Positions 36,611 through 56,026 of a stretch of 64,000 nt of DNA are shown here, piece after piece. Origin of the DNA: Verrucomicrobiota bacterium (lineage in GTDB: Bacteria; Verrucomicrobiota; Verrucomicrobiia; Verrucomicrobiales; Verrucomicrobiaceae); contig JAYVOH010000098.1 in assembly GCA_043758025.1 (NCBI GenBank), positions 199 through 64,198 of the forward strand. Reading direction: 5' to 3'. The position numbers and the translations under genes are program-made. Within the stretch, counting starts at the first letter, position 1. Each line of letters starts with the position of its first letter. Below the pieces are notes generated by a model. It was not told where the DNA came from, did no database searches, and saw only the letters and a program-made list of their open reading frames with translations.

Positions 36611-38782
36611 ATGACTTCCGCTGCCGCGACCGCAACCCATCATGCCACCATCAATGGTTTGGAGAATGTGCCGAGTGTCGGTGTGCTCATCATTCCGAGC
36701 AGGCTGGGGTTCTCTGATCTGATCAATTTGGAAAAAATGCTTCCCGGGCGGGAGCTGGTTTATTTGATCGAGCACGACGCGCAGTTCTCGGCGGAATTAA
36801 AAAAGCATCTGCACAGCGACGGAGTCCATGCCCTTGAAATACCCCCTGGCCCGGCAAAAGCGGATGCGCTGCATCGCGAGATCCAAGGCGCCGCCGCCGC
36901 TGGCAAAGTCATCATCTATGTGCCTTCAGAGTTGGTGGCCCCCGGCGCCCCCCTGTGCACCATCCCAGGCGCGAAGCTCGAATTTCTCATGCAGTTGAAG
37001 TTGCCGGTGCTGCCTCTCCACGTGCTGCACACCCATGATCTCGCCATGGCTATTGAGAGGAAGAGGCCGTCAGACGCGGCGGTCTTCTCTTTCGGCACCG
37101 TGGTGTCCGAGGGTTCGGTGGCAGCGATTCAGGAGTCACTCTTGCTGCTCTCGGAGAAAAGCTTCTCCCGGCTTCCGCTGCTTGATCTGCATCTGGCGCG
37201 CGCACTATTGATGGGATTAAAAAAACACCGTTCTCACGCCTGTGTCATTGACGGGAAAGACGACAGGATTTTCAGCTTCGATAGGATTCTGGCCCTGGCC
37301 ATCGTGCTCAGCAAGCACATCCGGTCCGCCACCAAGAAAAACCGGGTGGGCATCATCCTCCCTCCGTGTGGGGCCTCCACGGTAGCCAACGTCGCGGTGC
37401 TGCTGGCCGGGAAAGTTCCGGTGAATCTCAATTTCACGGCGGGTCGCGCCGCGATTGAAAGCGCTATGAAGCAGGCCGAGACCGATCACTACATCACCTC
37501 CGATTTGTTTGTTCGGAAAGTGCAGACTTTCCCGTGGCCGCCCAACCGCCAGCTCACTTTCATCGAGCGACTCCTGCCGATGAAGAAGGGGGCCATCATC
37601 TTTTGGTCGGCCGTCTCCAAGTTTCTCCCGACCTCCATCCTCGCGATGGTTCTGGGCGTTCCCAAAAAAGGCGGCGACTCCGAGGCCACGCTCCTTTTCA
37701 CCAGCGGCAGCAGCGGCGACCCCAAGGGCGTGGTGATGAGCCATCGCAATCTCATGGCCAACATCTGCCAGTTCAGTTCGCGCCTGAATCTGAAGCGTGG
37801 AGACAGTATCCTCGGCTGCCTGCCGCTCTTTCACTGCTTCGGCAGCACGGTGACGCTCTGGTATCCCATGGTCCAAGGGATCAATGTGGTGACTTATCCC
37901 ACGCCGCTGGAGATCAAAAAACTCGCCGAGCTGGTGCACAAGCACAAGATCACCGTGATGATTTCCACCCCGACCTTCCTGCGCGGTTATCTCAAGGGCG
38001 TGAACCCTGAGATGCTGGCGTCATTGAATCTCATTGTCACCGGCGCGGAGAAACTACCCAGGGCGGTGGCCGATGCCTTCGAATCGCGCTTCGGAAAAAA
38101 AGTTTACGAAGGATATGGCCTCACGGAAACCTCGCCCGTCTCCAATGTCAACCTGCCCGATCCCGTGCCACCCAGTGGAGCCGGTGATAGCTCGGTCATG
38201 ACCACTCATCGCCCGGGCAGCGTCGGCCAGTTGGTGCCGGGCTTGGCGATGAAAATCACCGTGCCGGAATCTGACTCGCCCCTCAGCTTGCATCAAAGCG
38301 GCATGATCTGGTTCAAGGGGGCCAATGTTTTCAAAGGCTATCTAAAAAATCCCAAGAAGACGGAGGAGGTCATTCAGGACGGATGGTTCCGCACTGGTGA
38401 CATCGGACGCATGGATGCAGATGGTTTCCTCTATATTGAAGGCCGTCTCAGCCGTTTCTCGAAGATCGGCGGCGAAATGGTGCCGCACGAAACCGTTGAG
38501 GAGAACCTGGTCAGAGCCCTGAATCTCGAAAGTGAAAGCAACCGCTGCATCGCTGTGGTCGGCATCCCCGACGCGGACAAAGGTGAGGCGCTGGTGATGC
38601 TCACCACCTTGCCCGGCGGTTCCGTGCAGCAGGAGATTCTCGATCTGCGTTACAAGCTGCTCGATCGAGGCATGACGCCGCTCTGGATACCCAAAAAGAT
38701 GATCCGCGTTCAGGAAATTCCCGTGCTGGCCAGCGGCAAGCTTGATATCAAAGCGTGTGAAGTCATCGCGATGACTGCGTGA
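36611..38782 (+). CDS. Aas-like bifunctional-type protein: degenerate acyltransferase-like N-domain + AMP-dependent acyl-(ACP/CoA) synthetase
   Basis: AMP-binding motifs LLFTSGSSGDPKGVVMSHRNL, YGLTETSP, GWFRTGDIG and the terminal ..ASGKLD. The N-terminal ~230 aa resembles PlsC-type acyltransferase, but the HxxxxD position reads PSRLGFSD. Confidence 0.8.
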   Translation: MTSAAATATHHATINGLENVPSVGVLIIPSRLGFSDLINLEKMLPGRELVYLIEHDAQFSAELKKHLHSDGVHALEIPPGPAKADALHREIQGAAAAGKVIIYVPSELVAPGAPLCTIPGAKLEFLMQLKLPVLPLHVLHTHDLAMAIERKRPSDAAVFSFGTVVSEGSVAAIQESLLLLSEKSFSRLPLLDLHLARALLMGLKKHRSHACVIDGKDDRIFSFDRILALAIVLSKHIRSATKKNRVGIILPPCGASTVANVAVLLAGKVPVNLNFTAGRAAIESAMKQAETDHYITSDLFVRKVQTFPWPPNRQLTFIERLLPMKKGAIIFWSAVSKFLPTSILAMVLGVPKKGGDSEATLLFTSGSSGDPKGVVMSHRNLMANICQFSSRLNLKRGDSILGCLPLFHCFGSTVTLWYPMVQGINVVTYPTPLEIKKLAELVHKHKITVMISTPTFLRGYLKGVNPEMLASLNLIVTGAEKLPRAVADAFESRFGKKVYEGYGLTETSPVSNVNLPDPVPPSGAGDSSVMTTHRPGSVGQLVPGLAMKITVPESDSPLSLHQSGMIWFKGANVFKGYLKNPKKTEEVIQDGWFRTGDIGRMDADGFLYIEGRLSRFSKIGGEMVPHETVEENLVRALNLESESNRCIAVVGIPDADKGEALVMLTTLPGGSVQQEILDLRYKLLDRGMTPLWIPKKMIRVQEIPVLASGKLDIKACEVIAMTA
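38735..38782 (+). repeat. Direct repeat copy 1 (3' end of Aas-like gene, ..GKLDIKACEVIAMTA*)
   Basis: Aligns with 43591-43638. The exact 23-nt core ATCAAAGCGTGTGAAGTCATCGC lies at 38747-38769. Confidence 0.85.
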
Positions 38783-39137
38783 CTTGCGGTCCTTATTTTT
38801 TCTGCGGCAGATTCAACTTCATTGATTGCGCCACGGCATATCCGGCGAGCTTGGAGATCGCGCAGAGTGGTCGGGAGGGAGGACTTGCTCGTATGCTGAG
38901 TTCGTGAAGTGGCTGCTGTAACCGCACGCGATTCACCGCGCCCTACCGACTGCAAGCCAAGGGGAAGTCAAGACATACAGAGACGGAGCAGCCTCCCGCA
39001 AGCACAAGACAAGAAATGAAAGAAACTACTGCTACAGACTACACTACGTTGTAACAAGTTTACTCATAAGCTGACGCAGAGTGTTTCAGCGGAGGGTAAG
39101 CGCATATCCGCGAACGGCGGCGTTGTGTTAGAGTTGG

Positions 39138-40130
39138 CTATCTAGCACCGAGTTTCGGCTCAAGGTTTCTATCATTTGGAGATGGGTTTCGAAAGCCGTC
39201 CACGACCGCAAAGTGATCGCCACCCGCTATCATTCTAAATCGAACCTTGGCAAAGGAATTATCAGGTAGTTGCAGCCAGTAGTTCTTTGTCTCGGTATCC
39301 CTCCATTTTCGAATACCAAGTGACTTCGGCATATCAATTACTGTTGAAGTAGTATAACCTTTAACAGGTGCTTCAAAAGCGGTGCTATCTGTCACTTCTT
39401 GGATGCCTCCGCCATTTACGATGATTTCGCATCGCCAATCAAACGGTGCTGCTGAGTCGTCAGTGTGGGCTTCGCTTTCACACTTCACGGTCAAGATCGG
39501 TGATCCCTTCCGACTTAAGCTAATCGGTAAAGCAACTCCGTTCCGAGGAATTTTTGCTTGTCCATTGAGCCGTTCAAGAACCACCGGATTGCCAGGCTTC
39601 CGAAGGTTGAAAATTGCTGGACGACTTGGATCGGATTTATGGACTCCACGGCCGGTATCAGCAGCAAAGTCAAATCCCTGCGAAGTAGGCTTTAACTGGC
39701 CTCCACGATCAATGTCGTCGTAGCCGTCCTTCGACACGCGCACATGAAGGCTTGCACCATTCGCACGGATTGTAAACCTGCCATCAGCAGCGGAAGATGT
39801 GGAGAGTGGAGTGCCAGATTGAAGATTATTGAGAACCGTCGCACTGACGGTTGCGCCTTGCACTGGGTTCTGATTCTGATCTAGCACAATGCCATAAAAC
39901 GTGATCGGCGTTTGAAGCAATGCTAGCATTGGCTTGGCCTCTGAAGCTGGCGGTGATTGATTGCCGACATTTGTCGGCAACAGAGTTGAAGCTTCCGTTG
40001 TGTATGGCTTTGACGCCAAAGTATCGACTCTACTTTGTTTGCTGGACGAATCGGGTCGGAGACACAAAAACAGCAGTGTTACCAGAAGTAAGACCCCACT
40101 TATCCAAACAATCTTCCTTGGTGTGCTCAT
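39138..40130 (-). CDS. Membrane-anchored protein with carboxypeptidase-regulatory-like beta-sandwich domain
   Basis: N-terminal TM anchor IVWISGVLLLVTLLFLCL, and ..FYGIVLDQNQNPVQGATVSATV...ADGRFTI.. (CarboxypepD_reg pattern). ATGA overlap with the upstream gene. Visibly low GC. Confidence 0.65.
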   Translation of the reverse strand: MSTPRKIVWISGVLLLVTLLFLCLRPDSSSKQSRVDTLASKPYTTEASTLLPTNVGNQSPPASEAKPMLALLQTPITFYGIVLDQNQNPVQGATVSATVLNNLQSGTPLSTSSAADGRFTIRANGASLHVRVSKDGYDDIDRGGQLKPTSQGFDFAADTGRGVHKSDPSRPAIFNLRKPGNPVVLERLNGQAKIPRNGVALPISLSRKGSPILTVKCESEAHTDDSAAPFDWRCEIIVNGGGIQEVTDSTAFEAPVKGYTTSTVIDMPKSLGIRKWRDTETKNYWLQLPDNSFAKVRFRMIAGGDHFAVVDGFRNPSPNDRNLEPKLGAR

Positions 40131-42364
40131 GGCATTGGGTTTGGGTTGATTCTGAAAGTGTAGAGAAGCTCACGCCATACTCCAAATGTCCTCTGAAGCG
40201 ACCAAATCCACTCCGCGCTGTGTTCACTGCCGAACAGTGACCGGTAGTTGTTCTCGAAAACGAATCTGTCCATGTCGATTTGCCAAGCCCCTGGCATTTC
40301 TAAATTGGTCGGTGTTCGACCGGCGGGTAGGGATTGCGTCCGAGTCACGAACGCCATGGCCTCTTCTTCCATTGTAACAGCATGATTTGAGAATAGGTCG
40401 AATCGAATTAGCTTACTCTTTGTTCCATGTCCGTCGCCAAGATCCCAGCCGCTATTTGAATACTCGTAGGTGCGATCGGTGACACTGTTTGGTTTGTTTA
40501 TTGTTTGATTGAGGCTCCAAGCCGTCGTTGCAAAGTCATCCTCAAGATAGAAATTGGTAACTGTCGCTGTGATGCCACTGAACTTCCCAGAAAGACCGAA
40601 CTTCGTCCGGATTGATGCGTCATCGTCCGTGTCTGGTGTGGCCAAGTTCGGAATGTCAATTCGGGTGGGGTCATATGATTGTGCGGCCATCGCAGCATTG
40701 AAAAGCGCATATCGTGAGACTCCAGTCATTCCCTGGAGAAACGCAGAACCGACAACTACATTTCCCATGCTATGCGCCATGATGTTCTTGGTGTAGCCGC
40801 TGGGTAGGGATGCCACATACGACTTCAGCGCCGCACCTGAGAGCCATGCACGATACTCGCTCTTGTTGTAAGTCAGGTAGCCATTGAGCGCACTTGTTGC
40901 AGGATTGAAAGTTGGCCAACTAAAGAAAGCATATCGTCCTTTATAGCCCAGATGCCACAATCGTTTGAATGTAGTGTTTGCCCAAGTCTGTGCTTCAGCA
41001 TACGTCATGCGCCAGCTGTGAACGTGGATGATGTATTGCTTGGTTTCGTCTGGATCTGTCTGGAACGCATTTCCATTTGGGTCAGTGGTTGACTGGAAGA
41101 TCAATGGCTCAGCTGTCACCCATGGGTCAGGAACGTTGTCAGGTTCAGCCATGGGAGCTGCAACCTTGCCGCGCTCGAACATCTCTTGGACGTCCATGAG
41201 TTTGATCCAAACGCCAGCCCCCTCGGCTTCTGCTGTAGAGCCAAACTTGATGACCATGGCAAGCTGTGCTGTTCCTTTTTCACAGCCTTCAAAAATAAAG
41301 TTCAATTTCGATGTTCCTGCCGCCACACCATGCCAGTAGGAGATTGGTAGAAATGTGGTCTGGCTTCCCTTCACATCAAGCACAGATTTCTGGTGGTCAG
41401 GGTCAACCTGCAAGTTAGCCTCATATTTGTAAAACAAGTATCTCTCATCTCCTTCGTCACCTTGCGCTTTGTAAACGCGAATTCGTGGGCCGATGCCATT
41501 TACCCATTTAAACCCAACCTGCAGTTCACCCGCTTTGGCTTTCTGCACGATGGCCGACGGCAATCTCACATGCAGGCGCGTGAAGTCCTCAAGGTCACGC
41601 ACTCCATCAATGTGACCTAGTGTCGGAGAAGAACGCCAGTCCGCAAATTCAGGCGGCGAAAGCTCGTCCCTCTTCATTGCTGTCTCAACATCTTCTCCGA
41701 GAGTATAAGGATCATCATCGTTATTGATCCAGAACCTAAACGGCTTTTGTTGGCTGGTCGTGTCTTTCTCATCGAAAGTGATTTCACCATCCCTGTTGGC
41801 GTCCACTGCTAAGTCAATAGGCAGTAAACACAAGATCACAGAAATGCCATCCTGATCATTGACGCCGGGTTTATACCACTTTTGACAGTAGTGAAGCTGG
41901 ATGTCGTAAGTTTTGCCAGATATGAATACACTCGGCCACGGTCTGGCTCCATTTAAAATATCGTGTCCTTTGTCATATTCTTCCAACCATGGCTTGGTTG
42001 TGTTATCAATATTCATTTCACAGCCATCATCGGACACTAGCGTCATCAGGCAGATGAACGACTGGCCATGTTTAGCTTCCGGCAATCTGAGCGCTCCGTC
42101 GTAGGTCTTGCCTATGGCTGTGCCTTGCGTGGCATCCATGTTTTTAATCTTGAGTTTACCACTTTTTGCTTTTTCTATCTCCTTAGTATAATCTGCATAA
42201 CTTTTCGTGTGCACGACGACGCTGGGAAAGTCTCCTGTGACGTTGGCATTAGTTGGATCTTGGGCTTGAAGCAGTGCTCCCGCACCATGAAGAATGCAGA
42301 CGGCGATCAACCCTGCACGAATTCCGGGACCATTTGAGAGTAATCTGAAATGCTTTATGGTCAT
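40127..42364 (-). CDS. Secreted multidomain protein with C-terminal DUF900-type alpha/beta hydrolase (lipase/esterase-like)
   Basis: Signal peptide. The C-terminal part ..IIHVHSWRM..GYKGRYAFFSWPT..NIMAHSMGNVVV.. matches the DUF900 pattern (HG.. / FSWPS / nucleophile elbow HSMG). The N-terminal PA14-like pattern (..SDDGCEMNID..GKTYDIQLHY..) is tentative. Acidic Ca-binding-like motifs DANRDGEI and FWINNDDD. Confidence 0.7.
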   Translation of the reverse strand: MTIKHFRLLSNGPGIRAGLIAVCILHGAGALLQAQDPTNANVTGDFPSVVVHTKSYADYTKEIEKAKSGKLKIKNMDATQGTAIGKTYDGALRLPEAKHGQSFICLMTLVSDDGCEMNIDNTTKPWLEEYDKGHDILNGARPWPSVFISGKTYDIQLHYCQKWYKPGVNDQDGISVILCLLPIDLAVDANRDGEITFDEKDTTSQQKPFRFWINNDDDPYTLGEDVETAMKRDELSPPEFADWRSSPTLGHIDGVRDLEDFTRLHVRLPSAIVQKAKAGELQVGFKWVNGIGPRIRVYKAQGDEGDERYLFYKYEANLQVDPDHQKSVLDVKGSQTTFLPISYWHGVAAGTSKLNFIFEGCEKGTAQLAMVIKFGSTAEAEGAGVWIKLMDVQEMFERGKVAAPMAEPDNVPDPWVTAEPLIFQSTTDPNGNAFQTDPDETKQYIIHVHSWRMTYAEAQTWANTTFKRLWHLGYKGRYAFFSWPTFNPATSALNGYLTYNKSEYRAWLSGAALKSYVASLPSGYTKNIMAHSMGNVVVGSAFLQGMTGVSRYALFNAAMAAQSYDPTRIDIPNLATPDTDDDASIRTKFGLSGKFSGITATVTNFYLEDDFATTAWSLNQTINKPNSVTDRTYEYSNSGWDLGDGHGTKSKLIRFDLFSNHAVTMEEEAMAFVTRTQSLPAGRTPTNLEMPGAWQIDMDRFVFENNYRSLFGSEHSAEWIWSLQRTFGVWRELLYTFRINPNPMP

Positions 42365-43413
42365 GGGCGGGGCTTGGGCTTGACTTCGGTGTTGGTTGCT
42401 TTCTTTTTTAAAACTTTCTCAGCAGCATCTTTTTTTGCTTTGGCAGCCGCGATCCATTTGTCAAAATATTTTCGACATGGCGCAAGGTTGCCATCCGTTC
42501 GCAGCATTGCTGCCTCTGTCCGGGCTTGGTCGTATCGGCCCGTTGAGAGATAAATCACTGCGAGGTTGTAATGAACATCGTCCAAGTCATTTCCTTCTCC
42601 CGGTCTGATGAAGCGCGGCGCAAGACTTTTTAGTAACTGAATGGCGCATTCTGTGTTCGCCTGACCTCCAAGTGCTTGAGCCTCCTGTGCCGCATCCTTG
42701 GTAAGGCTCAATACCTTATCACTAGAGAAATGTTCCGACGACGGTTCAAGCGCAGCCAGGAGTTCACTCATCCAGCCACGCCGAACCAAATGCGTCAGCC
42801 AGCTGCTGGAACGGGCGGCAAACTGTTTATCCTTGGGGAAATTGCCTGTGTTGATCAAATCACATATGTAAAAAATGATCCTTCGCGCCATGATGCGGCG
42901 GGTTTCGGGCGTGAAGGCAACGGGGTCCTGGGAATTCATCATATAACCCAATGAGAACTCCCATTTCGCACGTCGCTCATTGCCGGTCAGTTCCGCATCA
43001 CACACAGCCAGGATCACTCGCAGGCCGGCGCACATGCCGGGCCAGTCTTTCGCTTCGTCAAGGTAAGCGTATGCCGTGGTTTCCGGCACATAACCCGTGG
43101 TGGTAATAGAAAATGGTGGCACAATGGTGTCACCTTTGGCCTTGTCCAGATAGGTCATGACACGAGTGCGGATGATTGCTGCATCAAAAGCGTAATTGGA
43201 AGCGAGTGCTTTCAAATAATCGATGTCCACATTGGTCTTGCGCCATTCTCGATCAAACAAGCGCTGAAACTCTGTAGGTTCCGTAGTTGTTCCACTCTGG
43301 CTTTCGCCAGACTGCGCATTGATGAGGCCGCATGGGAAAATCACTGCCATGACAAGCCATAGCCATGCTCCGCAACTCAATGGGAGACTCCTGAAGTTTA
43401 TGAGACGAGTCAT
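42361..43413 (-). CDS. Secreted helical (TPR-like C-terminus) protein
   Basis: The signal peptide begins at MTRLINFRSLPLSCGAWLWLVMAVIFPCGLINAQ (ATG 43413; the ORF opens at 43473). The C-terminus ..YNLAVIYLSTGRYDQARTEA.. is TPR-like. ATGA overlap with the downstream gene. Confidence 0.6.
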   Translation of the reverse strand: MTRLINFRSLPLSCGAWLWLVMAVIFPCGLINAQSGESQSGTTTEPTEFQRLFDREWRKTNVDIDYLKALASNYAFDAAIIRTRVMTYLDKAKGDTIVPPFSITTTGYVPETTAYAYLDEAKDWPGMCAGLRVILAVCDAELTGNERRAKWEFSLGYMMNSQDPVAFTPETRRIMARRIIFYICDLINTGNFPKDKQFAARSSSWLTHLVRRGWMSELLAALEPSSEHFSSDKVLSLTKDAAQEAQALGGQANTECAIQLLKSLAPRFIRPGEGNDLDDVHYNLAVIYLSTGRYDQARTEAAMLRTDGNLAPCRKYFDKWIAAAKAKKDAAEKVLKKKATNTEVKPKPRP

Positions 43414-43590
43414 TTCAGTGTTCTCCGTTGTTCGTAGAATGGAAATGGTTAACCCCAGTTTGGTTGCTGGCAATCAACAAATGGTAGATTTTCGTTACCG
43501 ACCATGCCGTGCTGATAGAATGGTGAAGGCAATCGATTGCGCCCGGCTTGATGCGAATACAAGCCGATGAAAAGAATGGTGTCCGGCTGC

Positions 43591-43638
43591 GGCAAGCTGG
43601 ACATCAAAGCGTGTGAAGTCATCGCCAGGAACGCATGA
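43591..43638 (+). repeat. Direct repeat copy 2 (orphan copy of Aas-like gene 3' end, ..GKLDIKACEVIARNA*)
   Basis: The 23-nt exact core lies at 43603-43625, with flanking partial identity. No gene body upstream. Confidence 0.85.
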
Positions 43639-43647
43639 CCGAAGCTC

Positions 43648-45273
43648 CTAGTTTTTCCGTGACAAAAACAACTTCATCGACTGCGCCACATAAAAACCGG
43701 CGAGTTTGGCAAAGCCTGGCTCATTGATGATTTGATCCAGTTGATCGCGTGCTTCCTCCGGAGTTCCTTTGCGTTGCGCAAGTTCCGCGCGGTAGAGTGC
43801 GCAGCGAAGCTGGTCTTCCGGCACTGTGTTCAAGGAGCGGGCGTGCTGATAGAAATCATCCGCCTGACCGAAATTTCCCTCAAGCGTGGACAGCATCCCG
43901 GCCAGTTCAAGTAACAGCGGTTTTTTCATTTCCTCCGCAATGCGGACGATTTCCCGGTGAAATTTTTTTGTGTCATGCGGTAGAAAACGATGCGCCTGCT
44001 CCTGGTAAAGCGCGTAGTCTGCACCCGGCGACCCGCTCCCGGGCAGCGCGCGCTCCTTGCGAAATGGCTGGTAGAGAGGATCGCCGACCACCACGTTCAT
44101 CCATGAGAGCACCGGAGTGCCGCTCCATGCGGCCTCGCCCAGCGTGAAGCCTTCAAGCAGCCGCGCATTCATCAGGTCAAAGTGCGTGGTCAGCGTGAGG
44201 TAGGGTTCCCAGACATTTCCCAAGACCGCTGCTGCGCCGTGGTCGAGCATCGGCCCGCACCAGTTGTCTGTTTTCGTGCGCAGGGTGGCGGCGCTGAATG
44301 AATGAAGATGACACGCGATGGCTCCCGGCTTGAACCTGAATCCCGGTGATCCCAGGGCGCCGCTGCATTGGTCGTTATACCAGCCGAAGTAGAGAATCGT
44401 GTCCGGCAGCGGCCAGTTGCTGCGCAGGATTTCCTTGTTCCGGTCGGCATAGACAGGAATGCCTGCATCGCGAAAAAGTTTCACGCTGTTTCCCAGCCAG
44501 CGCTCGCCCTCGAGAAATGCTCCGTCTTTGAGGGCAAAGTCCACCACCGCGCGCCCCCACAAGCCTTCCTTCTCGGCCTTCAACGTTTCATTGATCATGC
44601 GCTTGACGATGTCATCGGTCGCCGCATCGAGGCGTCCGATGAGAAGCTGGCCGCGTGCCTCATAGTGATCGGCGAATCGGCGGGTGGATTGGTAGTATCG
44701 GTTTTCAATGCCGCCCTTGATAGGCCGCTGCATAAGTCCCAGCGCTGCCAGCTCGCTGTCCACGCTGGCCTCGTCGGTATCCATCACATTGGGCTTAGCC
44801 TCATGCGAGGCCCGGCTTACACGCAGCGGAATGCCGCGAATCAGCACCAGCACCCGCACGTTTTGGCTAACCACTTGCGGCCCCTGGCTGATCGGGCTGC
44901 CGTTTGGATCCAGCACATCGCGGGTCTCCACGACCCACCATTTCTTTTCGGTGAATTTTTTCAGCAAAGGTTCACGGATCGATTTTTCAAACTCATCCCG
45001 CGTGATGGTTTCTTCCTTGGAGCACTCGATGCCCACCACGCGATCATCTGGGATTAGTCTCAGGCCGGCGTAATATTTCGCCAGTGCTTCCGAGCCTTCA
45101 CATGCCGGATTGAAGACGACCACCGCTTCCTTGACCGGCTCCCATTCTCGCGCCGGAGTAGGGGCGGGCATCGCAGGTGGCGCTGCGGAAACCCGATGAA
45201 CACCCGCCAGTAGTGAAAGTAACAGCAGCTTTCTCAACAGGGCCGTGAAGCCCTGTCGTCGCGTGATTCTCAT
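43648..45273 (-). CDS. Secreted hypothetical protein with C-terminal TPR-like repeats (possibly TIGR03790-type family)
   Basis: Signal peptide after MRITRRQGFTALLRKLLLLSLLAGVHRVSA (the ORF opens at 45312). ..VVVFNPACEGSEALAKYYAGLRLIPDDRVV.. is recalled as typical of a Verrucomicrobia/Planctomycetes conserved family. That family call is from memory only. Confidence 0.65.
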   Translation of the reverse strand: MRITRRQGFTALLRKLLLLSLLAGVHRVSAAPPAMPAPTPAREWEPVKEAVVVFNPACEGSEALAKYYAGLRLIPDDRVVGIECSKEETITRDEFEKSIREPLLKKFTEKKWWVVETRDVLDPNGSPISQGPQVVSQNVRVLVLIRGIPLRVSRASHEAKPNVMDTDEASVDSELAALGLMQRPIKGGIENRYYQSTRRFADHYEARGQLLIGRLDAATDDIVKRMINETLKAEKEGLWGRAVVDFALKDGAFLEGERWLGNSVKLFRDAGIPVYADRNKEILRSNWPLPDTILYFGWYNDQCSGALGSPGFRFKPGAIACHLHSFSAATLRTKTDNWCGPMLDHGAAAVLGNVWEPYLTLTTHFDLMNARLLEGFTLGEAAWSGTPVLSWMNVVVGDPLYQPFRKERALPGSGSPGADYALYQEQAHRFLPHDTKKFHREIVRIAEEMKKPLLLELAGMLSTLEGNFGQADDFYQHARSLNTVPEDQLRCALYRAELAQRKGTPEEARDQLDQIINEPGFAKLAGFYVAQSMKLFLSRKN

Positions 45274-45301
45274 TTGAGTATGAACATTCATCACCATGCA
45301 A

Positions 45302-46093
45302 TCATGCATCATTCCAAGTCAGCCGGAGACCATCATAAGCGATCTTCACGCCATCCGGCAACTTCTGTTCCTCTCGTGCATGCATAATTTCGCACTGGAT
45401 GTGTGTGAACCAGGTCTGTCGTGCGCCAACATTCCCGGCAAACGCCAGCGCCTCCGGGAAGTTCATATGCGTGGGGTGCGGTGAGTGCCGCAGGGCGTCC
45501 ACAATGAGTGTGTCCACCCCGCTCAAGGCATCAATGGTTCCTGCAACCGCCTCCTTCATGTCGCTGATATACGCGCAAATTTTTCTGCCATGCCGCATAA
45601 ACAAAAACCCGATAGCTTCCACATTGCCATGTTTCACCGGGACTGGGATCACTTCCGTCTGTCCGATCTGGAACGGCCCGCTGATCGGCCGGGCCTCCGC
45701 TTTCAGATAGCCCCGCCAGCGGTTCACCGGATTGAAGCTGAAATAAAAGATGCGCTGCAGCGCCTCCAGCGTTTCCGGCAGTCCATACACCGGCATCACC
45801 GCCTCCTCGGGAATCGTGAACCGGCGCACATCATCAAAGCCGACGACATGATCAATGTGCGAATGCGTGAGCAGCACCGCATCCACGCGGCGAATGTTTT
45901 CCCGCAGGCATTGCGCGCGAAAGTCCGGCCCCGTATCCACCACGAAAGTGCATTCCGGCGTCTGGATGTAAATCGAGGATCGCAGGCGCTTGTCCCTTGG
46001 ATCAACGCTCCGGCAGGTCTCGCAGTCGCAGCCGATCATCGGCACGCCGACCGAGGTTCCGGTTCCGAGAAAGGTGAGTTCAAATGTGGACAT
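45302..46093 (-). CDS. MBL-fold metallo-hydrolase (PhnP-like)
   Basis: ..FLGTGTSVGVP..C.C..C.. then the HxHxDH motif THSHIDHVVG. 263 aa. Confidence 0.85.
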   Translation of the reverse strand: MSTFELTFLGTGTSVGVPMIGCDCETCRSVDPRDKRLRSSIYIQTPECTFVVDTGPDFRAQCLRENIRRVDAVLLTHSHIDHVVGFDDVRRFTIPEEAVMPVYGLPETLEALQRIFYFSFNPVNRWRGYLKAEARPISGPFQIGQTEVIPVPVKHGNVEAIGFLFMRHGRKICAYISDMKEAVAGTIDALSGVDTLIVDALRHSPHPTHMNFPEALAFAGNVGARQTWFTHIQCEIMHAREEQKLPDGVKIAYDGLRLTWNDA

Positions 46094-49639: not shown

Positions 49640-49933
49640 GGAATTGTGCGTGGCAATCATCGCTGGGTGTTTTTGAATTCCGCACAATTGATCGGCGACC
49701 AAAACAGAAAGGCATGAAGGAGCGCGAACATGATGGAACCTGCCCGCCGAGACCTCCTGCGGCACTGTAAATCTATAATCAAGGCATGCGGTTTCAAAAA
49801 AATCCCCCAGATGTGTCCCACCCTTCGGAGATCACCGGCTCCCCGCCTCACTTCGTCAGCCACACACGTTTTCCTTGGCATCTGTCTTTGATGATTGGTG
49901 CAAAGCCTGGTATTTCATCGTATTCTCTACTTG

Positions 49934-52900
49934 ATGAAGTTCCCGCTGCAAACGATGCAGGCCATCAGTTTCGGCTGGTTGCTCATGGCTGTCTTGTTAT
50001 GCGCCGCAGACCCGCAGCCATGGGTGGAGAAGGACACCCGGCTGGCGACGGAGTATTTGAAAATGCTGGTTGAGAAGCCGGAATATGGGCGCGTGCTTGA
50101 TCTGCTCTGGGAACTTTACGACAAGCACGGATCATCTGCCCTGTTGCTCGACAGCATCAACGCGCAAGTGAAGCAGCAAGCGCATCCGAATGTGCTGCTG
50201 GTTCAGGCGCACTTGCTCCGCAAGGCGGGTCACGTTGATGAGGCGGCGCTGGATTATCGCGCGATACTTGTGAAGGAACCGAACAACACGGTCGCTCTGC
50301 GCGGACTGGCGGACATTTTGCTGGAGCAATCGAAGCGTGAGGAGGCGTTGCAAATTTTAAGACTCCTCGCGGCGACCTTGCCCCATAACGATCCGCAGCG
50401 TGGACCTTTGCTTTTGGAGCAGGGAAAAATCGCACTGCAAATTGGAAAACGTGATGGTGCGGCGGCGGCGTGGGAGGAGGCCGTGAAGCTACAGCCGGAC
50501 AATGTCGCGCTGGTGCGTGAAGTTGCGCAGTTATTTCTGGGTGCGGGATTTTTGGAGAAGGCTCTCGAACTGCAGCGGCAGATCGCGCGCTCAACGGATC
50601 CGGTGAAGAGACTCGATGCACTCCTTGAACTCTCACGCATTGAGGAACAGAGCGACCATTTCTCCGAGGCCAAGGCCGCGCTGCACAATGGTATAGCTCT
50701 ACTGCATTACAAAGAAGGCCGTTATGAAATGTTTTTTCAACGTATGGTGAAACTGCATGAGCGCTTCGGACAGCTTGATGCCTTGAAATCTGAACTGCTC
50801 AAGGCGGCGGAACCCAAGCCAGTGCCGGAGAAGGCGTTGATGGACTTGGAACATTTTTTTGCGATCACCGTCGAGCCGGAGCAGCGCATCATCTGGTTGC
50901 GCATATTGGCGCAAACTTTTCCGCAAAACAACGAACACATCTGGAAACTCGTGGGCGCGCTGCTCGATCACGAAGGCAACGCGGAAGCGGCGCAACTCCT
51001 CGATGCCCGGTTAAAAAATGACGGCACTGATTTCGCCAGCGTCGTATTGATGCGGTGTGCCGCCCATTTGCAAGCGGGCGAAGCAGATCAGGCCGCTGCG
51101 CGACTGGGTAAACTTCTGGAAGTTCAGAACGCGAATGCGGATGTGGAAAAACAGGTGCTCGCCTTTGCCCAACAGAAGTCGCTCGATGCCGTCACGGAGC
51201 AGCTGTTACGGGGGCGCTTGGCGCGCGATCCGGCCAAGGCGGAGCCGGTGTTTGAACTTGCCGCCTTTCTTCGCGCGCGCGGACGTGGACGGGAATCAGG
51301 AGCACTGTTTGATGCCTTCGTTGCGGCTGCACCGCCTGCGGAAAAATTGCGCCACATGAATGACGTGGCCGGATTTCTGGCCAATGGCGGCGACCCTGAC
51401 GCGGCGGAAGATGCGGCGCGCAGGGCATTGAAACAACGGAACGCAGGTCGCGATGAGATCATCCGCCTTGCTGATGTGCTCTCACAGAATGAAAAAAACG
51501 GCGAGGCACTTTCGCTACTGGAACAGGCCTGGGTGTTGAGTGACAGCACCGACAAGCGGATGGAGACTGATGAGCGTATTCTGGCGTTGCTTTCAGGCGG
51601 GCCGGCACCGAAGACGGCACCACCTGCGGCTGTGACCGACTTCAAGCTGCCTGCGTTTTTCACCCCCGGATTCGGTTCCGATGCCCCGACCGAGAAACGC
51701 GCCACTGTGGCGAGGGCGGCTGTTGAATATGCCGTGGCGCAGGCTGCTGTGGTTAAGTTTAAGTCCCGTCAGTTCGAAATTCCCCATGGAATATTTCGAC
51801 TGTGGCCCATCGGAGACTTGGAGGGCGCGTGGAATATCCTCCTGCAAAATTTTCCTGCCGCCACGCCGGAGCGTATGTTGCGCGCCGCATGGTGGTGCTT
51901 CCGCTCCGACCAGACAGAACTCGCCTACGCCGTGGTGTGGAATCTTATATTCGATGACAGAGGTCGTCGCGTAACCGCATCGACTGAAGTTGAGAAGTTG
52001 CTGCTGGATATTGCGCTTGCGGATAAGAACTCGTTTCTCGCCATCCGTCAGTTGAGGCTGCTTTCAGAAATCGATCCCGAAAATCGCACCGCTCACCAAC
52101 TGCGACTGGCCGAGCAGCAAATGGCGCGGGAGGGCGCGGCGGGGCGCGGGGAGGCGATGGGCATTCTGGAATCCCTTGCGAGGTCAGTGCCGCAGAATGA
52201 ATCAGTGCTTTCCGCACTCGCCCAATGTTATAAGGTCGAGGGCCGTCGCGACAAGGTGCTTGCTCTCTGGGAAAATGCCGTGCGCAGCACGAGGACACCG
52301 CTGGCAACGCTTCAGGAACATCACGCGGAGGCACTTATGGAGCAGCATAAGTTCAAGGAGTTCATCGAAATCCAAATGCGATTGATCGAGTCAGAAACCG
52401 ATCTGAAGCGGAGACGGGAAAATTTTCAGCGCGCCTTGGAACGATTGATGTGGGCTGATTCCTTGCAAGGCGAGCTGCCGGATGATGAGAAAAAAAAGCG
52501 CCTCACTCTGGTGGCGGGTGCACTCAAAGAACGATCACAGCAACATTCTTTCGAGGGCTTCTGGTTTGAGGCGCTTGCGAGAATCTATGAGCGTCAGGGT
52601 GATCCCGCCAAGGCATTTGCTGCCATGAAACAGGCTTACTACACAACTCCAGATGCGCCGTATTCGCTGGAGGAGCTTCGATCCGCCGCGCAGAGGGCGG
52701 GGGACTTGAAGATCTCGATATATTTTCAGAAGCAAATCGCCGCTGGTGCCCCGGCAAAAAACTCGGCCGCCGAATGGCGCGAACTGGTGCAGCTGCTTGA
52801 GCAGGATTTTCGCATCACGGAAGCAGATCAGGTTCGCCGTCAGTTGGAAACTCGTTCCTCCCAGAATTTTGCCGCGTTGGACGATCTGGCAAAATATTAT

Positions 52901-55900
52901 GCCGACACTTCACAGGAAGATGCCGGGCGACGCGTGCTTGAGCAGATGGCACGCATTCGCCCGTGGGATGCCCGGAATTTGTTAAAGCTTGCGATGGTGC
53001 AGAAAAGCATGGGTGACATCAAGGCCGCCGGGCAGGTCTTGCAGGCGTTGCTCACCGTCACGCCCGTGGTGGAGATTCCGCAGAACACGCCGCTGGAATT
53101 ATGGCCGTGGCCAGTCATGGACCAGCGCATGTCCGCCGCTCCGGTGCGCACGGCGCTCATGAGCGCGCTGGATAACGCTCCGGGAATCGAGCAGCCGGAG
53201 CGGGATCGCCTGCGTATATTCCTGAGCCTGCCGCGCGGTGAATCTGCGGAGATTCCTGATGAAGCTGGTCGGGTGCGGCTGCGGGCGATAGAAGAGATGT
53301 CGGCCATGAAAGTTGCACCTGACATCGTGGCGTCACCACCTTCAGAAATCGAGCGCGCCTGGGCGATGTTTCACAGCGCGGATAAGGCGGGTTTTCACAA
53401 GCTGATGGGCGCACGATTCAAGGATGCAAGGGCCTTGGAGGAGCAATTCGTTTACGTTTGGCTGGGCCTGCGTTCTCATGGCATGGCGGAGATGATCGCA
53501 TGGGCTGGTGATGAAAAGCTGGCCGAGGCTCAGCGCAAATCACGCAAGGGATTGATTCAAGCCGTGGTGCACATGCTGGTGGAATCCCCAGGCTTTGTCT
53601 TCTCCGCTTCCGACATATCAGCGCTGGGTGACGCGAATTTCTTCACCAACACGGAGCTCATCGACATAACGCGCAAGCTGGAAAGCCGCCAGCGCCGCGA
53701 TCTGGCGCTGCTGTTGGGCACTGCGGCCAAGCGCAATGCGCCAGCGCTGGATGCCGACTACGGAATCTTTCTGGCCCGTCTCGCGGAGGTCTCGGGTGAT
53801 CTGGATTCACAGCGAAAATTTTTGCTGGACGGATGGAACAGGCCGCTGCAGGCCGAGCGACCAGGCGTGAATGATGTCTTTATGCAAAGCCTTGCGGGCT
53901 TGCTGAGACTGGCGCGCGATGATGCGGAACGCGCACGGATTCTCACCGAGGGCTGGCGCAGGCTGAAACAGCTGCCGCCTTCCGGGCAAGGCAATCTTCG
54001 TGAAGCGAGACTGCTGGGCCTGGCAGGAGCGGATGACATCGCGGAGCGAAAGCTTGCTGGCTATCTCGGCAACGGTTTTCTCACGGCGCGCGCATTTGTG
54101 GAACCCATGATTGGCCGCCTGCCACCAGGGGTGAAACCCGGACCTAGAGTTGATGAGGTGAATCATCTGCGGGGTTATTGGGATGATTTGCGCGTTTGGG
54201 GCGAGGTATTGAAACAGGACGGTCTGGCGCCGTTGGTGAATGATGCCGCGCAAATAGTTGGTCTGAGAAATGGGGGCGTGCCCGCCGGCCCCCGGTCAAA
54301 CTATGAGTTCAGCATGTGGCAGCATCAGGTGACGGATCTGAACTTGCGCGTCACGTCTTATCCTGAGCGTTTGCTGAAAGTGCGCGCGATCGCAGCGGCC
54401 AATGAATCCGTGGATGCGATCATTGAGGTTGGAAATTTTCTCGAATCCCAAGGGTTCGCTCGCGAGTGTATTGAGCTTTACCGCCGGCTTCCCGATCGTG
54501 CGCCATCGAATGTGGAATACTGCGAGCAGTTGCTGCGTGTGAGTGAAAGCGCGTGGGACTATGAGGCGGCCATTCCCTTGATCGAGAAATTGCTGGTGGC
54601 CGCGCCCGAGATGCGACCGCAAAATCTTGCGGAGCGACTGCTCGAAGAAAAGCACGCCCGGTTCCTCGCGCGGCTGCATGACACGGCCAGGCTGCGCGTC
54701 ATGGCCTTCGGCGCGGCGTCTCCATTGAAGTCGGGGCGCATCCCCGGGGAGGCTCCTTATCTCAGGGAGCTGGCCTTGTTGCTGGAGCGCGAGGGGGACC
54801 GGCCCGGCGCTCTCGCCGCGTGGGATCAGCTAGCCTTGCTGATGCCGGATGATGTTGTAGCGACACTGCATCGCGCAAAAATATTTGCGGCCCAAGGACA
54901 TTCCAGTCTGGCGCTGGAGACACTTCGCAAAGTGGCTGCGGCAGATTTATCCAAGGAAGGTTCACGCGGAGTCCTGGAGCTGCGAGCCAGACTGGAGGCG
55001 GAAGCCGGGCACTGGGATCACATGCGGGAATTGATGAACGTGGTGAGTGGTGGTTCCGTGAACGCATCATTCCTGCATGTCGGAAATGTCATCATGCTCG
55101 CCCAAGTGCTCGCTGACCATCATCGTCCGGTTGAGGCGCAGAGCCTGCTGGTGCGTGGAGAGCGAATGGTGAAGGATGAAACCGGGCGCTTTAGATTGCG
55201 GCTGGAACAGTTCAAGCTGGCGGCGCATGATCCGGCATGGGATCCCCGGCGGGATGCGGTGCGCATCGCCTCACTTTTGCGGATCGAAATCACGGATCGG
55301 GATGTATTGAACAATCTTCGCGAATGGATGGCGCATGAGTCAGTCACAACACGGGCAGCGGCATGGGCTGAGTTATTAACCGGACTGCCACCAGCGCCGT
55401 CCGTGATTTTGGCATTGGCGACGATGGACGTTCCGCAGGAAAATCTTCGATCTGTAATTCAGAATGCACGATGGGATTTGCCAGATGGTCGCCAGAAAGC
55501 TGTGAGGCGGTTGATTGCAGAGACATTGATGGATCACGGGAAGCCGCAACTCGCGCTTGAATTGCTGCCGGACGACGGCCCGCAGTCAGTTCGCGCGTTG
55601 TCCGCTCTGGGCGACAGACATGGTTTGCAGGAGTTGGTGGGCAAACTTGTAAGAATGAGTTTTCCCGGTGGTGGTGAAATCGTGGAATATGCGGAGGCAT
55701 TGGCCGCATCGGGTCAAGCAGAACTTGCGGATGAATTGTATTCACTGGGCATGAAGCGGCTGCGGGCGACGGCAGGCATCCTGCCGCCATTGGTGAAATC
55801 TTACGCGACGTTTTTATTGAAGAGGAGACAGTTTGAACGTGCGGAGGTATTGCTGATCCGGGAGAACGCGGGCATCACCGAAGGGCTGCCGGAATTGCTG

Positions 55901-56026
55901 GTTGAACTTTACAGGGAATGGAACAGGCTTGGTCAGTTGCCCTTGGAGTTGGTAAAGTTTCATCTGCCCAACGGGGTTCGCGAGGAAGCTTTGTTCCTTG
56001 CCAGGCAACGCGAAAAGAAGCCATGA
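49934..56026 (+). CDS. Giant TPR-repeat protein
   Basis: About 2030 aa. Signal/anchor MKFPLQTMQAISFGWLLMAVLLCA, then continuous helical TPR-like repeats. The ORF opens at 49895. Confidence 0.8.
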   Translation: MKFPLQTMQAISFGWLLMAVLLCAADPQPWVEKDTRLATEYLKMLVEKPEYGRVLDLLWELYDKHGSSALLLDSINAQVKQQAHPNVLLVQAHLLRKAGHVDEAALDYRAILVKEPNNTVALRGLADILLEQSKREEALQILRLLAATLPHNDPQRGPLLLEQGKIALQIGKRDGAAAAWEEAVKLQPDNVALVREVAQLFLGAGFLEKALELQRQIARSTDPVKRLDALLELSRIEEQSDHFSEAKAALHNGIALLHYKEGRYEMFFQRMVKLHERFGQLDALKSELLKAAEPKPVPEKALMDLEHFFAITVEPEQRIIWLRILAQTFPQNNEHIWKLVGALLDHEGNAEAAQLLDARLKNDGTDFASVVLMRCAAHLQAGEADQAAARLGKLLEVQNANADVEKQVLAFAQQKSLDAVTEQLLRGRLARDPAKAEPVFELAAFLRARGRGRESGALFDAFVAAAPPAEKLRHMNDVAGFLANGGDPDAAEDAARRALKQRNAGRDEIIRLADVLSQNEKNGEALSLLEQAWVLSDSTDKRMETDERILALLSGGPAPKTAPPAAVTDFKLPAFFTPGFGSDAPTEKRATVARAAVEYAVAQAAVVKFKSRQFEIPHGIFRLWPIGDLEGAWNILLQNFPAATPERMLRAAWWCFRSDQTELAYAVVWNLIFDDRGRRVTASTEVEKLLLDIALADKNSFLAIRQLRLLSEIDPENRTAHQLRLAEQQMAREGAAGRGEAMGILESLARSVPQNESVLSALAQCYKVEGRRDKVLALWENAVRSTRTPLATLQEHHAEALMEQHKFKEFIEIQMRLIESETDLKRRRENFQRALERLMWADSLQGELPDDEKKKRLTLVAGALKERSQQHSFEGFWFEALARIYERQGDPAKAFAAMKQAYYTTPDAPYSLEELRSAAQRAGDLKISIYFQKQIAAGAPAKNSAAEWRELVQLLEQDFRITEADQVRRQLETRSSQNFAALDDLAKYYADTSQEDAGRRVLEQMARIRPWDARNLLKLAMVQKSMGDIKAAGQVLQALLTVTPVVEIPQNTPLELWPWPVMDQRMSAAPVRTALMSALDNAPGIEQPERDRLRIFLSLPRGESAEIPDEAGRVRLRAIEEMSAMKVAPDIVASPPSEIERAWAMFHSADKAGFHKLMGARFKDARALEEQFVYVWLGLRSHGMAEMIAWAGDEKLAEAQRKSRKGLIQAVVHMLVESPGFVFSASDISALGDANFFTNTELIDITRKLESRQRRDLALLLGTAAKRNAPALDADYGIFLARLAEVSGDLDSQRKFLLDGWNRPLQAERPGVNDVFMQSLAGLLRLARDDAERARILTEGWRRLKQLPPSGQGNLREARLLGLAGADDIAERKLAGYLGNGFLTARAFVEPMIGRLPPGVKPGPRVDEVNHLRGYWDDLRVWGEVLKQDGLAPLVNDAAQIVGLRNGGVPAGPRSNYEFSMWQHQVTDLNLRVTSYPERLLKVRAIAAANESVDAIIEVGNFLESQGFARECIELYRRLPDRAPSNVEYCEQLLRVSESAWDYEAAIPLIEKLLVAAPEMRPQNLAERLLEEKHARFLARLHDTARLRVMAFGAASPLKSGRIPGEAPYLRELALLLEREGDRPGALAAWDQLALLMPDDVVATLHRAKIFAAQGHSSLALETLRKVAAADLSKEGSRGVLELRARLEAEAGHWDHMRELMNVVSGGSVNASFLHVGNVIMLAQVLADHHRPVEAQSLLVRGERMVKDETGRFRLRLEQFKLAAHDPAWDPRRDAVRIASLLRIEITDRDVLNNLREWMAHESVTTRAAAWAELLTGLPPAPSVILALATMDVPQENLRSVIQNARWDLPDGRQKAVRRLIAETLMDHGKPQLALELLPDDGPQSVRALSALGDRHGLQELVGKLVRMSFPGGGEIVEYAEALAASGQAELADELYSLGMKRLRATAGILPPLVKSYATFLLKRRQFERAEVLLIRENAGITEGLPELLVELYREWNRLGQLPLELVKFHLPNGVREEALFLARQREKKP

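Follow-up and report, generated by a model that had tools for sequence, protein, structure and literature searches.

We analyzed a 64,000-nt stretch of DNA (the window, on which all coordinates are based) from a Verrucomicrobiota bacterium (GCA_043758025.1, contig JAYVOH010000098.1), in which ORF calling finds three consecutive genes on the minus strand, here named A, B, and C in the order of their transcription. Gene A (42361..43413) encodes 350 aa from the ATG start that gene callers used on identical contigs; an alternative TTG start at 43473 would extend it to 42361..43473 and 370 aa. Gene B (40127..42364) encodes 745 aa, and gene C (39138..40130) encodes 330 aa; residue numbers below refer to these three proteins. 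The ORFs and the ATGA overlaps that join A to B (42364-42361) and B to C (40130-40127), both read directly in the sequence, bear out a preliminary description of the locus as three translationally coupled genes for exported proteins. NCBIfam returned no match for A, B, or C, and a promoter and terminator scan of the region found sites no more common than expected by chance. Comparison loci and proteins carry L and P numbers, respectively; L012 is a sister strain.

The three genes lie in a stretch of reduced GC content (49% across 39-43 kb, compared with 57-60% in both flanks) that is bracketed by imperfect 122-bp direct repeats of 75-79% identity at a spacing of 4856 (repeat search, families D1 and D2), in agreement with the earlier proposal of a horizontally acquired islet. 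Its flanks are convergent housekeeping genes, an acyl-CoA synthetase-like gene on the plus strand (36611..38782) and a gene for a 554-aa protein on the minus strand (43648..45312), the latter adjoining a Lactamase_B-fold gene. The left repeat copy (38733-38854) consists of the true 3′ end of the synthetase gene and a decayed 3′ end of the 554-aa gene; the right copy (43589-43709) consists of a decayed synthetase 3′ end and the true 3′ end of the 554-aa gene. This pattern suggests a Campbell-type event, being what an integrating circular element with a foreign copy of the flank junction would leave. The islet contains no integrase. An exact bridging pattern search for the empty site, that is, a sister genome lacking the islet, found none, and a protein-based scan returned only relatives of ≤44% identity, with neither synthetase nor islet beside the Lactamase_B/554-aa pair. 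It is from the GC content, the repeats, and the mosaic structure described below that we infer insertion of the islet.

Protein B begins with a signal peptide (residues 1 to ∼35; 42261..42364, minus strand), recognized by eye from its hydrophobic core and a cleavage site between LQA and QD. A β-rich N-domain (residues ∼36-183; 41816..42260, minus strand) follows, and then a C-terminal part (B-CT, residues ∼184-745) made of an acidic β-sandwich and a DUF900-like α/β hydrolase. An AlphaFold2 model computed from 54 sequences reached a mean predicted local distance difference test (pLDDT) score of 82.6 and a predicted template modeling score of 0.84. Confidence is below 50 for residues 1-37, moderate in the N-domain (pLDDT 50-78), and mostly above 90 across residues 184-745, with a dip to ∼55 over 221-240. 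The motifs DANRDGEI, FWINNDDD, DLEDF, HVHSW, FFSWPT, and AHSMGN, named in the preliminary description, are all present.

The hydrolase occupies residues 441-745 (40130..41044, minus strand). Pfam DUF900 (PF05990) matches residues 439-614 with 24.8 bits (cut-off 20.5), a partial match that spans profile positions 16-168 of 232; of the 54 family members, 32 have DUF900 as their top Pfam match (best E-value 5e-9). The other Pfam hydrolase families found in the B family are Abhydrolase_6 and, weakly and in 2 of 54 members, PGAP1. In the AlphaFold2 model, strand 525-531 runs into a nucleophile elbow, A-H-S532-M-G, with helix 534-543 behind it; D610 comes after strand 601-606, and H715 is close to the C terminus. 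Among 71 species-representative homologs, Ser532 and Asp610 are conserved in all and His715 in 68, the remaining three having gaps at this position. By sequence and by model, B thus has the Ser/Asp/His order and the strand-elbow-helix arrangement of an α/β hydrolase. The DUF900-type hydrolase of the preliminary description is thereby supported, with a conserved Ser/Asp/His set. Foldseek matches of the hydrolase domain include the thermostable esterase 3doh, the Mycobacterium tuberculosis monoglyceride lipase 6eic, and hydroxynitrile lyase. They come from a search with the whole model, which gave mostly meaningless multidomain matches (TM ∼0.1) and shows only a general similarity to esterases and lipases.

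The acidic β-sandwich (residues 184 to ∼400; 41165..41815, minus strand) carries positions that are invariant both in alignment A1 and across 71 species-representative loci: D188/R191/G193, W212/N214/D216/D218, and R256/D257/E259/D260. A sequence search of the PDB with B alone found no match; with the family profile, the sole matches were to protein-arginine deiminase 2 (PAD2), the best of them weak (E = 0.024). In this alignment, VDANRDG, WINNDDD, and RDLEDF of B are collinear with VDADRDG, LVNCDRE, and EDLKDMS in PAD2 residues 101-208, a region of PAD2 that binds calcium. Pfam PAD_M does not match B, and the whole-model Foldseek search did not list PAD. We tentatively regard homology of the acidic region to the PAD Ig domain as probable, and the region probably binds calcium. 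The acidic motifs noted earlier as calcium-binding-like are real and family-invariant; they are not generic EF-hands, and their only match in the PDB, a weak one, is to the Ig-domain region of PAD2.

Two further features of the hydrolase may bear on its activity and specificity. Codon 450 (41015..41017, minus strand) is AGC, so that the HG (oxyanion) motif at 449-450 reads H449-S450 in the window. This position is glycine in all 71 species-representative homologs and in all 53 other members of the alignment; in the nearest relative (L092, 88% identical) the codon is GGC. An identical B protein is encoded on eight contigs (five shown, from five different samples), and S450 is therefore taken as a real allele, a sequencing error being unlikely. 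Between the catalytic Asp and His lies a hypervariable patch (residues 626-710; 40235..40489, minus strand), with 24-27% identity across the family compared with ∼50% in neighboring blocks, and 36-53% compared with 75-89% among close homologs. The patch is a candidate surface for immunity specificity or, alternatively, a lid.

Protein C starts with a signal-anchor helix (residues 5-23, from sequence and AlphaFold2), followed by a disordered linker (26-64) and all-β domains (75-315), and ends in a conserved RNPxPNDRNLEP motif; the model has a pLDDT of 83. CarboxypepD_reg (PF13620) matches residues 79-141 with 37.5 bits (cut-off 32.3), and the description of C as a single-pass membrane protein with a carboxypeptidase-regulatory-like sandwich holds. 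Foldseek matches are generic transthyretin-like sandwiches: the regulatory domains of carboxypeptidases D and N, the N-terminal extension of SusC, and the transthyretin domain of teneurin. Because positive residues precede the helix, the body of C should face the periplasm. As judged from sequence, this is the side on which immunity to an envelope-acting lipase would be needed and through which B would pass after Sec export; the Sec signal of B and the signal anchor of C, with its predicted periplasmic body, match the location of immunity for lipases of this kind. We regard C as the putative cognate immunity protein of B.

To place the pair in a wider context, we scanned one genome per species and obtained 334 loci encoding a B relative. 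Eighty of them were fetched, and their stop-to-stop ORFs were searched using profiles built from alignments A1 (for B) and A2 (for C). Cultivable carriers are Brevifollis gellanilyticus NBRC 108608 (L019), Haloferula luteola YC6886 (L034, L047), Haloferula chungangensis (L036), and Phragmitibacter flavus (P0016). These loci are almost all from Verrucomicrobiota, with Akkermansiaceae, Verrucomicrobiaceae, Luteolibacter, Haloferula, Prosthecobacter, Brevifollis, Chthoniobacterales, and Opitutales represented. A C homolog lies directly downstream on the same strand at every one of the 81 B 3′ ends in them. Of 79 cases, 46 have a 4-nt overlap of start and stop between the B and C genes; in almost all of the remainder the two are no more than 14 nt apart. 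B relatives number at least 467 (545-1300 aa) and have in common only the part corresponding to B residues ∼180-745; the N-terminal regions of long homologs are mutually unrelated and contain TSP3_bac (22/39), fn3, Ig-like, LamG, NIDO, and RCC1 domains. By these sequence comparisons the conserved unit is the pair of B-CT and C. Conservation of A, B, and C as a triad, a check that the preliminary description had called for, was not borne out, A having essentially no relatives outside a narrow lineage.

A strict partnership of this kind could also be seen if B were a secreted or surface lipase/esterase, degradative or host-directed, serving nutrition or colonization, with C as its steric chaperone (Lif-like), anchor, or maturation factor and no antagonism involved. 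Operons of lipA and lif share the layout of an enzyme gene coupled to one for a signal-anchored periplasmic partner, and tight translational coupling of the enzyme to such a partner is what we find here; the adhesin-like domains (TSP3, fn3, Ig, LamG) of the long homologs and the lack of a recognized toxin-delivery domain or nearby secretion system favor the same explanation. The Lif (lipase-specific foldase) family of lipase chaperones, however, has a helical fold, whereas C is all-β after its membrane helix and matches no lipase-chaperone family in Pfam or NCBIfam.

The turnover of the pair also argues against a helper role for C. About ten loci have extra C copies; those in L018, L020, L062, L067, L073, and L088 are in tandem and 30-40% identical to the first C. 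At six loci (L042, L043, L076, L081, L087, and L091) we found 5′-truncated B fragments, 46-64% identical to the main B, every one of them with a C of its own behind it. Neither kind of trace would be expected from a private foldase. At L008 and L009, a C homolog (P0133) lies without an adjoining B among Y1 and DDE transposase genes; it may represent an orphaned immunity gene or what is left of a locus that was disrupted. C also changes faster than B-CT, matched pairs having identities of 53% compared with 71%, 50% compared with 68%, and 34% compared with 48%; were C a foldase, one would expect it to be better conserved than the enzyme, and the hypervariable patch in the enzyme is likewise unexpected of such a pair. 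Compared with L092, B is 88% identical over residues 251-572 and 60% over 576-745, and C is 47-50% identical. The drop in B identity, near residue 573, is thus accompanied by divergence of C, and from this concurrence we conclude that the changing part of B changes together with C. By analogy, and as judged from sequence, tandem C copies, orphan cassettes, a fast-evolving C, and a variable patch are features expected of contact-dependent inhibition, Rhs, or Maf-type cassettes. With the N-domain evidence given below, in which one N-domain bears unrelated C termini that each have their own downstream gene, we consider the enzyme-and-helper explanation unlikely and favor B as a toxin and C as its immunity protein.

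The sister strain L012, which has an islet at the same chromosomal site as the window, forms a mosaic with it. The two sequences are 99-100% identical through the 554-aa gene, and identity is 65-92% in gene A and the signal-peptide region of B; within the N-domain, identity is 100% over 42207-41908 and 92% over 41907-41808. By blastn they are collinear from 47793 to 41814, unrelated as far as 38826, and homologous again from 38825. A sliding identity profile places the same break, with homology ending at B codon 184. From this mosaic we conclude that B-CT and C were exchanged as one block at codon 184; the replaceable cassette (38826..41814, minus strand) includes B-CT, C, and ∼310 bp downstream. 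The window B-CT is 71% identical to the C terminus of a 1292-aa protein with a different N terminus, whereas a protein with the same N-domain (L096) is only 46% identical to B overall, which indicates that cassettes move between N-terminal contexts.

Some comparison genes appear damaged. Gene A of L012 (4504-5615) is frameshifted into ORFs of 305 and 93 aa. The putative immunity gene that follows its DUF6973 protein looks broken in two, one ORF of 73 aa carrying a signal peptide and another of 211/232 aa carrying a membrane helix at its C terminus. In L092, B and C are each split. The split L012 genes are pseudogenes or assembly errors.

Such lesions, together with G450S at an invariant position, are what could be cited for regarding the three ORFs as an unrelated or decaying mobile-element remnant with no current function. 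In the window, however, all three ORFs are intact and coupled at their starts, the catalytic residues are in place, and the same B protein recurs across contigs from different samples; we hold this explanation to be highly improbable.

The constant part of B is shared with proteins that have other C termini. B residues 1-187 are 88% identical to P0022, which ends in DUF6973, and the N-domain is 52-70% identical to that of proteins from L094, L095, and L096. One N-domain, with A upstream, thus bears three unrelated C termini, each followed by a different exported protein: a PAD-like region with DUF900 in the window and L096, DUF6973 in L012, and a zincin-like region with the motif HEIGHGLG in L094 and L095. 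From its distribution, the N-domain is putatively a constant delivery or targeting part. The suggestion of a PA14-like fold for it found no backing, Pfam giving no match to residues 1-183 at E ≤ 1, PA14 and DUF1020 included.

Two observations concern the HEIGHGLG-type loci themselves. The proteins (L094 9055-10833; L095 1656-3275) are followed by a 259-aa helical protein with a signal peptide that is 99.6% identical between the two loci, and neither their C terminus nor this partner matches a Pfam family. They make up a candidate new pair of metallopeptidase toxin and immunity protein.

Protein A has a signal peptide with predicted cleavage, by eye, between INA and QSG. Its body is helical and contains conserved cysteines, and at the C-terminal end there are a TPR-like hairpin and a tail rich in Lys; no lipobox is seen by eye. 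Its one TPR match in Pfam (residues 299-320) is below threshold, and the A profile also matches a TPR protein at A residues 246-299. Of the earlier view of A as a helical signal-peptide protein with a TPR-like end, the signal peptide is upheld, and the TPR assignment is at the level of this subthreshold match. The A profile found nothing in the PDB. Homologs are scarce, with only eight in 5.8e9 clusters, and a scan of 1.84e9 proteins without a word filter gave three strong representatives, the rest being TPR noise. As far as sequence searches indicate, A has essentially no relatives beyond one narrow lineage. At every locus with A, the next protein carries the N-domain (B residues ∼20-185, 52-88% identical), and across these loci the identities of A and of the N-domain drop in parallel. 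A thus appears from sequence to covary with the N-domain and not with the hydrolase, and both seem to be lineage-specific.

Helical signal-peptide proteins of ∼200-260 aa also adjoin the start of N-domain-bearing B homologs in other Verrucomicrobiota, in the same position as A and with 30-42% mutual identity (L033 6950-7756; L046 6976-7764; L067 7311-8003; L087 7305-7997). As relatives of A these proteins were set aside, homology not being established (blastp E = 0.011; hhalign probability 5%).

We consider it moderately probable that the islet encodes a Sec-dependent polymorphic toxin/immunity system of two nested modules. The first would be the toxin, B residues 184-745, with its acidic β-sandwich and Ser532/Asp610/His715 hydrolase, together with C. 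Given its catalytic features, the Foldseek matches, and two papers on lipase toxins cited below, B would most likely attack the cell envelope as a phospholipase or esterase. C would be a bitopic inner-membrane immunity protein whose periplasmic β-sandwich domains bind B and inhibit it, whether B is passing through the periplasm of the producer or arriving from neighbors. In the second module, A and B residues 36-183 would form a lineage-specific delivery part, A being an exported helical/TPR partner that recognizes the N-domain and helps B to pass through the outer membrane or to settle on it, the part that MafA plays for MafB. New toxin/immunity cassettes would be swapped in by recombination at the codon 184 junction and in the right flank. 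Several traits of polymorphic toxins are present: a constant N-domain joined to three unrelated C termini with a sharp break at codon 184, a downstream cognate gene in 81 of 81 cases, orphan cassettes of C terminus and immunity gene, and arrays of C. In B only a Sec signal peptide is evident, which corresponds to the Sec/"T2SS" (type II secretion system) class of Zhang et al. 2012. Of the roles suggested in the preliminary description, effector plus immunity or chaperone, or adhesion and degradation, the effector-plus-immunity option thus fits B and C, with their strict adjacency, orphan cassettes, fast-changing C, and sister-strain swap; the conserved unit is this pair and not the triad.

Several findings weigh against this assignment. 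Pfam searches of B, its N-domain, and 39 N-terminal regions revealed no recognized trafficking domain or secretion system; specifically, the 39 long N-terminal regions contain no RHS, PAAR, TPS, LXG, HINT, or DUF1020, and their adhesin-like repeats would be equally at home in a surface enzyme. The ∼10 kb around the islet hold no secretion-system genes, and there is no evident route for the ∼80-kDa B into the periplasm of a neighbor. At ∼565 aa the putative toxin module is large, and its fair degree of conservation contrasts with the highly diverse C termini of classical systems. The window allele itself, with S450 in place of an invariant Gly, may be weakened or altered in activity.

In its presumed action, the B-C pair probably most resembles the Tle/Tli lipase effector/immunity pairs of type VI secretion systems (T6SS), in which lipase effectors are encoded next to periplasm-facing immunity proteins. 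The families Tle1-Tle5 correspond to DUF2235, Lipase_3, DUF3274, PGAP1-like, and PLD. With these pairs, and with the Tox-ABhydrolase-1/2/3 toxins of polymorphic systems, the putative toxin B would share a nucleophile-elbow Ser hydrolase and an adjacent gene for a periplasm-facing immunity protein. In contrast to Tle effectors, B has no DUF2235, Lipase_3, DUF3274, or PLD match, and PGAP1 is confined to the two weakly matching members mentioned above; no T6SS genes are present among the annotated neighbors and no PAAR/VgrG fusions were found, export of B being by a Sec signal. The putative immunity protein also differs from Tli proteins in being a signal-anchored β protein of the CarboxypepD_reg type. 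Polymorphic toxin systems are known to include lipase toxins with an α/β-hydrolase fold (PMC3482391 section 33).

A second precedent is Cinquedea, a secreted archaeal α/β hydrolase that is experimentally a bactericidal phospholipase A and most of whose archaeal homologs have a Pfam DUF900 match (bioRxiv 10.64898/2026.06.10.730825). Its likeness to B, as a secreted α/β hydrolase of the DUF900 type, is one of family and not of direct sequence comparison; Cinquedea is an archaeal single-gene unit without an immunity partner, and B adds the acidic β-sandwich and N-terminal modules. The protein-arginine deiminases PAD2 and PAD4 have N-terminal Ig-like domains, and the three acidic motifs of this β-sandwich align weakly, in the same order, with that region of PAD2 (at the E-value given above); B lacks the deiminase catalytic domain.

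That a secreted hydrolase of a mostly DUF900 family can kill bacteria from outside, with no partner gene apparent in its genomic context, raises the question of whether C protects only the producer. B must cross its own periplasm after Sec export, and no mechanism of entry into diderm neighbors is evident; C could accordingly be a self-protection inhibitor for the transit of B, with B aimed at nonkin such as Gram-positive bacteria, eukaryotic cells, or membrane vesicles and no kin discrimination involved. The divergent extra C copies and orphan cassettes, in contrast, suggest collected protection against nonself alleles, and a B patch that covaries with C fits an allele-specific arms race. We judge protection confined to the producer to be quite unlikely and prefer immunity that also acts against B arriving from neighbors.

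The closest known layout is that of the Neisseria mafA-mafB-mafI islands, to which the islet is related by analogy of gene order and logic only. In both, a gene for an exported accessory protein (mafA) precedes one for a Sec-signal toxin with a constant N-domain and a variable C terminus (mafB) and an immunity gene (mafI); both lie on a genomic islet, here of low GC content, with orphan cassettes of C terminus and immunity gene. Secretion of MafB depends on MafA, in some cases on the cognate MafA of the particular MafB protein (PMC4287609, PMC7738311). There is no sequence relationship, however, and the phylum is a different one. Because the B N-domain has no DUF1020 match and A shows no similarity to MafA or to any adhesin family, membership in the Maf systems fails; the lack of a visible lipobox in A is a further difference. 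The characterized MafB toxin is an EndoU ribonuclease, implying an intracellular target, whereas B is predicted to act on the envelope, with a periplasmic immunity protein.

Other parts of the window hold features unrelated to the islet genes. The Lactamase_B-fold gene and the gene for the 554-aa protein, which has a signal peptide and no Pfam family (43648-46093), are kept as an adjoining pair in many distant metagenome loci (L097-L132), with neither synthetase nor islet beside them. At 11-7933 on the plus strand, a 2640-aa ORF contains 15 PATR (passenger-associated transport) repeats and has a GC content of 68-70%, much higher than elsewhere in the window; its first base is only 10 nt from the start of the window, which may cut it off, and it looks like a giant autotransporter-passenger-like surface protein. 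A 2043-aa ORF at 49895-56026 on the plus strand has N-terminal TPR repeats as its sole recognizable feature.

Neither this gene set nor its families turned up in a literature search on DUF900, PF05990, DUF6973, and toxins of Verrucomicrobia. As far as this search reached, the earlier statement that no described system with this gene set is known therefore stands, with the qualification that mafA-mafB-mafI is a close analogue in layout. For Verrucomicrobiota, we found no dedicated interbacterial toxin system in the literature other than the generic listings of domains given by the 2012 survey of polymorphic toxins. Systems that combine a polymorphic toxin bearing a lipase-like domain with a periplasmic immunity protein are already known as a kind; the particular components here, namely toxin module, immunity family, N-domain, and A, are not.

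Taken jointly, two claims are put forward tentatively, and we think it doubtful that both hold: that A and the ∼150-aa N-domain constitute a new Sec-dependent outer-membrane delivery route for polymorphic toxins of Verrucomicrobiota, and that B-CT and C constitute a new phylum-wide toxin/immunity family whose allele specificity is set by B residues 626-710. If both were true, this would be the first interbacterial weapon that we found described for Verrucomicrobiota, a phylum common in soil, freshwater, and gut. The toxin/immunity pair, if confirmed, would be represented by 334 loci in a collection of species-representative genomes and would bring with it a new type of immunity protein, a signal-anchored CarboxypepD_reg β protein, and possibly, in A, a Maf-like export helper. 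DUF900 hydrolases gain a testable role, with concrete residues and regions to mutate, and the strict pairing of B and C provides a simple genomic marker for finding such loci.

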